From assembly GCA_000092065.1 (NCBI GenBank), contig CP000581.1: 64,000 nucleotides of DNA; one strand, given 5' to 3'. Shown here piece by piece: positions 16,698 to 18,468 of the stretch. This stretch comes from Ostreococcus lucimarinus (taxonomy: Eukaryota). The notes beneath the pieces are model-generated. The model had not been told where the DNA came from and made no database searches. It saw nothing but the letters and a program-made list of their open reading frames with translations. Each line of letters starts with the position of its first letter. Position 1 is the first letter of the stretch. The position numbers and the translations under genes are program-made.

Positions 16698-18468
16698 ATG
16701 CGGTGCGTCGACTTTTTCTTCATTCAATCGCGTCGACGCGCGCGCGTCGACGCGCGCGCGCGCGCGTCGAAACCGCGATCCCGCGCCCGCGACGTTTGAA
16801 GTTGGATCGCTCGCTGACGAATGTGCGCGTAATCTTTCCCTCGTGAACAGCGAAATCGTCCACATCCAGGGCGGCCAGTGCGGTAACCAGATCGGGGCGA
16901 AGTTCTGGGAGGTACGTCACGCCTCGCGCGCGCGCTTCGACCGTCGCGAGCGCGAATGCGAGGGCGATTTCACGTCATCTGTCGCGACCGCGAGATCGAC
17001 GACTGACGCGAACGATCGACGACGACGACGGCGCGCGATAGGTTATCTGCGACGAGCACGGGATCGGGGCCGATGGGACGTATATCGGTGATTCTGATTT
17101 GCAGCTCGAGCGCGTGAACGTGTACTACAACGAAGCGAACGGAGGTACGTGATGCGCTCGATCGGGCGCGGGCGCTAACGGCTATATGTCACTGGAGCGG
17201 GACGCGAGAGACGCGCGCGCGAAGCGCGAGCGGTGGGGTGAGAGGAAAACGAACGAACAGAGAGACTGACGAGATGTGCGATGACGCGATGCGATGATGT
17301 AGGACGCTACGTGCCGCGCGCCGTGCTCATGGATCTCGAGCCGGGGACGATGGATTCCGTGCGCTCGGGACCGTACGGACAAATCTTCCGACCGGACAAC
17401 TTTGTGTTCGGACAGACTGGTGCGGGGAATAACTGGGCCAAGGGTCACTACACCGAAGGTGCGGAGTTGATCGATTCCGTGATGGACGTGGTGCGAAAAG
17501 AGGCTGAATCATGCGACTGCTTGCAAGGTTTCCAAGTGGCGCACTCGCTCGGAGGCGGTACCGGTTCCGGTATGGGGACGCTTCTCATCTCGAAGATTCG
17601 CGAAGAGTACCCCGATCGCATGATGCTCACGTTCTCTGTCGTACCGTCGCCCAAGGTGTCCGACACCGTGGTCGAGCCGTACAACGCCACGCTTTCCGTG
17701 CACCAGCTCGTCGAAAACGCCGACGAGTGCGTCGTGCTCGACAACGAAGCGCTTTACGACATCTGCTTCCGCACGCTGAAACTCACGAACCCGACGTTTG
17801 GTGACTTGAACCACTTGATTTCGGCGGTTATGTCCGGTATCACTTGCTGCTTGCGATTCCCGGGTCAGCTCAACGCTGATTTGCGTAAACTCGCGGTGAA
17901 CTTGGTGCCGTTCCCGCGCTTGCACTTCTTCATGGTTGGTTTCGCGCCGCTCACGTCCAGAGGCGCGCAACAGTACCGCGCGCTTTCTGTGCCGGAAATC
18001 ACCGCGCAAATGTGGGACGCCAAAAACATGATGTGCGCCGCCGATCCGCGTCACGGCCGCTACCTCACCGCCTCTGCGCTTTACCGCGGTCGCATGTCAA
18101 CCAAGGAAGTTGACGAACAACTCTTGAATGTTCAAAACAAAAATTCGGCGTACTTCGTGGAGTGGATTCCTAACAACGTGAAGAGCTCGGTGTGCGACAT
18201 CCCTCCCAAGGGTCTTAAGATGTCCGCCACCTTTGTCGGTAACACTACCGCGATTCAAGAGATGTTCAAGCGCGTCAGCGAAGCGTTCACGTCGATGTTC
18301 CGTCGCAAGGCTTTCTTGCACTGGTACACGGGTGAGGGTATGGACGAGATGGAGTTCACTGAGGCTGAATCTAACATGAACGATTTGGTGTCCGAGTACC
18401 AGCAGTACCAAGACGCCACTGTGGACGATGATGGTGATTACGACGAAGACGAGGACGGGGCATATTAA
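16698..18468 (+). CDS. TUBB: beta-tubulin, four exons: about 16698-16702, 16851-16911, 17042-17144, 17303-18468
   Basis: Exons 2-4 encode (M)[21 protein letters not shown] / [35 protein letters not shown] / [19 protein letters not shown]...EEDGAY. GTACGT 5' splice sites and an ACTGAC branch point precede each AG. Exon 1 is a proposed 5-nt micro-exon ATGCG|GTGCGT. It is needed because the exon 2 frame lacks an ATG (the track shows a GTG start, MNSEIVHIQ). Confidence 0.85.

Follow-up and report, generated by a model that had tools for sequence, protein, structure and literature searches.

A phase-2 intron in codon 2 of the Ostreococcus lucimarinus beta-tubulin gene leaves five coding nucleotides in the first exon

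The stretch of Ostreococcus lucimarinus DNA analysed here (the window, 64,000 nt) carries a beta-tubulin gene with four coding exons and three introns (Table 1). Joining 16698-16702, 16851-16911, 17042-17144 and 17303-18468 yields a 1335-nt ORF of 444 amino acids with no internal stops. Exact look-ups in NCBI, UniProt and EukProt found this product in all three collections; every residue is identical to ABO93763.1 / XP_001415471.1 / UniProt A4RQY5, the 'Tubulin beta chain' of O. lucimarinus CCE9901. It matches the Pfam families PF00091 Tubulin (1.5e-64, residues 3-211) and PF03953 Tubulin_C (6.2e-41, residues 261-382) and is 87-94% identical to plant and algal beta-tubulins. The interval between the upstream ORF and the tubulin start codon is short, and it must accommodate both the promoter and the 5'UTR of exon 1. 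All three introns fall within the first 57 of the 444 codons. Such crowding of introns toward the 5' end is a familiar bias of intron-poor genomes.

Table 1. Features of the beta-tubulin locus, and the uS8/S15a gene used for comparison of splice signals, in window coordinates
Feature	Position	Strand	Description
Beta-tubulin gene	16698-18468	+	Four coding exons of 5, 61, 103 and 1166 nt
Gap from stop of upstream ORF (16544) to tubulin ATG	16545..16697	+	153 nt
Exon 1, coding part ATGCG	16698..16702	+	Met and first two bases of Arg codon 2
Intron 1	16703..16850	+	148 nt, phase 2, GT-AG; 5' splice site GTGCGTC, 3' end CAG
Branch-point motif GCTGAC	16813..16818	+	Branch A at 16817, 33 nt before last intron base
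Spurious GTG-started ORF	16843..17091	+	MNSEIVHIQ...FWEVRHAS...; begins in intron 1, covers exon 2 and enters intron 2
Exon 2	16851..16911	+	61 nt; third base of Arg2 through Glu22
Intron 2	16912..17041	+	130 nt, phase 0; GTACGTC donor, ACTGACG branch point, TAG 3' end
Exon 3	17042..17144	+	103 nt; codon 23 to the first base of codon 57
Intron 3	17145..17302	+	158 nt, phase 1 in codon 57
Exon 4	17303..18468	+	Remaining beta-tubulin coding sequence including TAA stop
uS8/S15a gene	47796-48549	-	Four exons: 48549-48516, 48372-48274, 48159-48066, 47961-47796; 130 aa

The initial annotation had placed the start codon on a 5-nt micro-exon, ATGCG, about 150 nt upstream of exon 2. The elements lie where it had put them, with the ATG at 16698-16700 and the donor beginning at 16703. 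The coding part of exon 1 is indeed 5 nt long; the term micro-exon fits less well, as this exon also contains the 5'UTR and is the first exon of the gene rather than an internal one. At the other end of intron 1, the acceptor aacAG has its AG at 16849-50 (CAG, 16848-16850), and exon 2 opens at 16851 with CGAAATCGTC... (fuller read CGAAATCGTCCACATCCAG...). The proposed junction of ATGCG to CGAAATC reads ATG-CGC-GAA-ATC and gives the canonical N terminus MREIVHIQ, as had been predicted. If intron 1 is retained, translation of the unspliced frame meets a stop after 33 codons.

The signals of intron 1 were compared with those of its neighbors and with published data. In O. lucimarinus, introns confirmed by ESTs and located outside chromosome 2 have an atypical 5' consensus, GTGCGTG, and carry ACTGAC in 87% and GACTGACG in 66.5% of cases (Irimia and Roy, PMC2483917). 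The donor of intron 1, GTGCGTC, agrees with that consensus at 6 of 7 positions, and its branch motif, cGCTGACg, agrees with ACTGAC at 5 of 6, with CTGAC intact and a G in place of the modal A. By both its 5' splice site and its branch motif it is thus an intron of the Ostreococcus 'non-chromosome-2' kind. A CTGAC motif stands approximately 30 nt before the 3' AG in each of the three tubulin introns, including the branch-like GCTGAC that had been pointed out upstream of gaacag|CGAAATC; intron 3 has a GTACGTG donor, an ACTGACG branch point and a TAG 3' end. Each of the three introns of the uS8/S15a gene in the same window has a donor of GTACGT or GTGCGT and a branch motif of GACTAAC or GACTGACG. 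The same signals in this gene and the published consensus indicate that the donor had rightly been described as one of local consensus.

We enumerated every combination of ATG, GT or GC donor and AG acceptor for which exon 2 stays in frame, which gave 31 formal combinations. A single one of them encodes MREIVHIQ, and that one alone uses a consensus GTGCGT donor; the 153-nt stretch holds a single ATG, and that at 16698 is the sole one usable with a donor. The other 30, all formally in frame, represent the possibility that Met-Arg is supplied by another exon, or by an extended exon 1 with a different donor or acceptor such as the GC donor at 16730. The initial annotation had named a different upstream exon supplying Met-Arg as the finding that would overturn it, and none of these 30 alternatives gives MREI. 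Their donors are weak GC or GTCGAC-type sites that depart from the local consensus (PMC2483917), and none is conserved in relatives. In addition, the sequence upstream of 16545 belongs to a neighboring gene whose synteny with O. tauri is kept, and the RefSeq protein corresponds to the ATGCG solution. We therefore regard a different source of Met-Arg as very unlikely.

The 11-mer ATGCGGTRMGT occurs once in the 64-kb window, both strands included, against 0.13 occurrences expected from shuffled sequences, and the chance of finding it in the 153-nt gap on the right strand is approximately 1.6e-4 by our own arithmetic. A looser motif made of donor, CTRAC and AG was not enriched, with 25 candidates on both strands compared with about 23.5 per strand in shuffles. 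Thus, the case rests on the reading frame, the conservation and the transcripts, and not on motif counts.

Conservation was assessed at 12 other Mamiellales loci, namely those of O. tauri and Bathycoccus prasinos and ten metagenome loci of Ostreococcus, Bathycoccus and Micromonas type. At the ten metagenome loci, the match to tubulin starts from residue 2 or 3. Each of the 12 loci has the 5-nt coding exon and the phase-2 intron in Arg codon 2, and ATGCG|GT is kept in 13/13 loci when the window is counted. The initial annotation had called for a comparison with annotated beta-tubulin genes of Mamiellophyceae; those of O. tauri and Bathycoccus start at the homologous ATG. The annotated start of the O. 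tauri gene (CEF96621.1, locus L002) is the ATG of gtcATGCG|GTGCGTCGAC, with the donor in ATGCG|GTGCGT, spliced to cgcgcag|GGAAATCGTG. RNA-seq validates 89% of the introns in the O. tauri v2 annotation (PMC4378021), from which L002 is taken. In B. prasinos (K8EQC6, CAL63...), the annotated start is that of ATGCG|GTAAGT, spliced to aacag|TGAAATCGTC.

Among the orthologues, intron 1 is 146-283 nt long; the copies in the ten metagenome loci span 152-283 nt, and each has a CAG 3' end. Its donors are GTGCGT, GTAAGT, GTGAGT or GTACGC. CTGAC is found 24-36 nt from the 3' end in 12 of the 13 orthologous introns (24-35 nt in 9 of the 10 metagenome loci), the exception being locus L045, where it lies at 65 nt. 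The Arg codon ends in C, G or T depending on the locus, always synonymously, and the length of exon 2, 61 nt, is identical in all Mamiellales loci. Four metagenome loci were spliced in the same way and their products identified: L016 gives Micromonas commoda XP_002507691.1, L045 gives Bathycoccus K8EQC6, L068 gives the ORF of a Micromonas polaris MMETSP1327 transcript, and L066 matches only an unnamed 'tubulin beta' entry.

Ostreococcus and Micromonas have three intron positions in common, in codon 2 (phase 2), after codon 22 and in codon 57 (phase 1). The codon-57 intron is present in the window and in L002, L013, L016, L066 and L068 and is absent from the Bathycoccus-type genes (L003, L044, L045, L053 and L028), which keep the two 5'-most introns; this looks like a lineage-specific intron loss. 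As the codon-2 intron occurs in Ostreococcus, Bathycoccus and Micromonas, it predates the split between Bathycoccaceae and Mamiellaceae, and its position has been kept since before these three genera diverged. Gene order around the tubulin gene is also kept between the window (14129-19643) and O. tauri (L001/L002), with an LRR-kinase gene on the minus strand followed by genes for a MinC_C protein, a 270-aa protein, beta-tubulin and an adh_short (FabG-like) reductase. The tubulin and reductase genes are adjacent in Micromonas polaris as well (L068, L087).

Transcript evidence came from Micromonas. Exact look-up of the M. polaris protein identified ten transcript-like contigs with an uninterrupted 1332-nt ORF, whereas the corresponding look-up of the O. 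lucimarinus protein returned no contig. Nine of them (L085-L091, L093 and L094) align with the genomic locus L068 in co-linear blocks at approximately 99.7-100% identity, with block boundaries at the three predicted introns. Their first junction reads gcaacATGCG^TGAAATCGTC (longer read ...aaacgcaacATGCG^TGAAATCGTC), i.e., ATGCG^TGAAATC. The tenth contig, L092, from another Micromonas, has the same junction, ATGCG^CGAGATCGTT. The orthologous intron is removed in Micromonas polaris RNA.

Five of the M. polaris contigs (L087, L090, L091, L093 and L094) have their 5' ends 33-55 nt ahead of the ATG, suggesting that the Micromonas first exon is approximately 40-60 nt long including a 5'UTR of about 40-55 nt; the four others extend further. 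Over those 33-55 nt the contigs are collinear with the genome and show no sign of an upstream intron. In two of the contigs (L085:1-1505 and L086:1-1433, aligned with L068:1064-2801), the upstream neighbor and the tubulin mRNA are concatenated, and a further intron is spliced at L068 1166-1397. This concatenation fits the overlapping UTRs of very dense genomes; the same was described for O. tauri RNA-seq assemblies (Blanc-Mathieu et al., PMC4378021). Intron-free Mamiellales tubulin contigs at 90% nucleotide identity or more were not found among 80 metagenome loci, and gamma-tubulin is the sole tubulin mentioned in the supplementary material of the EST paper on O. lucimarinus.

The ORF list of the window does contain, as had been noted, an ORF that begins with GTG and reads MNSEIVHIQ. 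Taken at face value, it would mean that there is no intron 1 and that translation starts at GTG 16843. Nuclear genes very rarely begin at GTG, and this ORF enters intron 2 and ends after 82 amino acids. The residues that precede EIVHIQ in the corresponding frame vary among relatives (RR, HR, NS, HS, CS or YS), and the 'NS' of the O. lucimarinus version arises because the acceptor aacAG|C is translated. The MNSEIVHIQ sequence is absent from the protein collection, the MREI form being the RefSeq protein, and the orthologous transcripts join ATGCG to exon 2. A start at GTG thus has a very small likelihood, and ORF 16843..17091 is an artifact of bacterial-style ORF listing.

Taken together, 16698-18468 is almost certainly the O. 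lucimarinus beta-tubulin gene with an ordinary U2-type intron in Arg codon 2, a first exon made of the 5'UTR and ATGCG, and splicing that creates the MREI start. Intron 1 is real, and it is an ordinary 5'-proximal spliceosomal intron of the GT-AG class. The spliceosome would recognize CG|GTGCGT, the branch site GCTGAC and the CAG acceptor; ATGCG would then be joined to CGAAATC..., with the junction ...GACATGCG^CGAAATCGTC, to produce an mRNA encoding Met-Arg-Glu-Ile. We infer that this splicing takes place in O. lucimarinus itself. Conservation across Mamiellales and the direct RNA evidence from Micromonas make the splice call secure.

The 444-residue product shows no detectable difference from that of the public O. 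lucimarinus model. MREIVHIQ had been predicted to be the true N terminus, and the protein so obtained is XP_001415471.1. The ATGCG exon is the sole possible source of Met-Arg, and therefore the public gene model must contain it; the codon-2 intron must accordingly be already known and part of the public annotation. The tetrapeptide MREI, the autoregulation motif, is encoded only after the ATGCG^CGAA splice. MREI is a conserved N-terminal motif of beta-tubulins, and in animals it is read cotranslationally by TTC5 during autoregulation (PMC10403363).

Where transcription of the O. lucimarinus gene starts and why intron 1 has persisted we likewise infer. In an intron-poor genome, 5'-proximal introns are usually the ones retained, which likely accounts for its persistence; the intron may benefit the expression or export of an mRNA that is highly expressed. 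A stronger version holds that the same intron is functionally required at codon 2 and is not a neutral 5'-biased relic, acting through intron-mediated enhancement, export of an abundant mRNA or regulated retention, in which case the premature stop after 33 codons would switch off tubulin synthesis. The position is frozen in Ostreococcus, Bathycoccus and Micromonas even though Bathycoccus lost intron 3, and highly expressed genes of O. lucimarinus are enriched in introns (Lanier et al., PMC2367439). Nevertheless, neutral, 5'-biased retention of introns would likewise be expected to conserve the position. Between Ostreococcus lineages, intron 1 is no more similar than introns 2 and 3 are, and it has no 9-mer common to three or more of these lineages; conserved no better than its neighbors, it gives no sign of a special regulatory element. 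A search of 16400-17400 against Rfam returned sub-threshold chance matches only, e.g., symR, and nothing credible. We thus consider a functional requirement for the intron to be rather unlikely, and ordinary 5'-biased retention remains our preferred reading. Biologically, the gene offers a textbook example of 5' intron clustering in a highly expressed gene, and it opens no new question.

Very short first coding exons are found in other systems. Fungal-type beta-tubulin genes, e.g., Aspergillus benA and Neurospora tub-2, have a 12-nt first coding exon (MREI|). They resemble the O. lucimarinus gene in the shortness of that exon and in having a 5'-proximal intron. However, the fungal-type intron follows codon 4 in phase 0, whereas that of O. 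lucimarinus lies inside codon 2 in phase 2, and the two are not homologous. A 12-nt coding first exon, ATGCGTGAAATC|GTAAGT (MREI|), was also seen in a eukaryote with a 72% identical tubulin (L080:2897-2915).

Start-codon introns are phase-0 introns between codons 1 and 2 that are enriched in ribosomal protein genes (Nielsen and Wernersson 2006, PMC1626468). The tubulin intron resembles them in lying a few bases from the ATG and in its consequence for gene finders, but it is in phase 2 in codon 2, and it interrupts the gene of a long cytoskeletal protein rather than one of the short lysine-rich class. The likeness to internal micro-exons of animals and plants is limited to the small number of coding bases. 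Tubulin exon 1 is a first exon with a 5'UTR, and no exon definition across two introns is needed.

The main value of the codon-2 intron is as a practical warning on gene calling in compact, intron-poor genomes. ORF-based, bacterial-style calling truncates or garbles picoeukaryote genes whose start codon lies just ahead of a 5'-proximal intron. The expectation that gene callers would break on such genes was borne out by three 575-aa proteins from ENA metagenomes (P0111, P0112 and P0116), which correspond to Bathycoccus beta-tubulin translated through introns 1 and 2 (compare L003:3001-3520). These predictions include translated intron sequence, and their exon 2 portion is in the wrong frame.

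It had also been suggested that other genes of this region share the start problem. A crude scan of the 64-kb window yielded no second convincing case. Candidate start micro-exons at 62060 (+), 50530 (-), 48527 (-), 48286 (-) and 1144 (-) were implausible, those at 48527 and 48286 being internal ATGs of the uS8 gene. The nearest case in the window is uS8/S15a itself, with a first coding exon of 34 nt.

Other sequence features of the region were recorded. At 16729-16770, intron 1 contains overlapping perfect palindromes whose 17-nt arms are composed of (CG)n and GTCGAC; the pre-mRNA could fold into a hairpin here, and the palindromes show no evident conservation in O. tauri. Near the 5' end of intron 3 (approximately 17172-17185), the 9-mer TAACGGCTA is common to three Ostreococcus lineages (window, L011 and L013) in introns that have otherwise diverged, and O. 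tauri has CTAACGGCT at the homologous place. Upstream of the tubulin gene, 15500-16100 has a GC content of 0.72-0.84 compared with 0.61 for the whole window, and it contains long overlapping ORFs on both strands, making ORF lists especially unreliable there.
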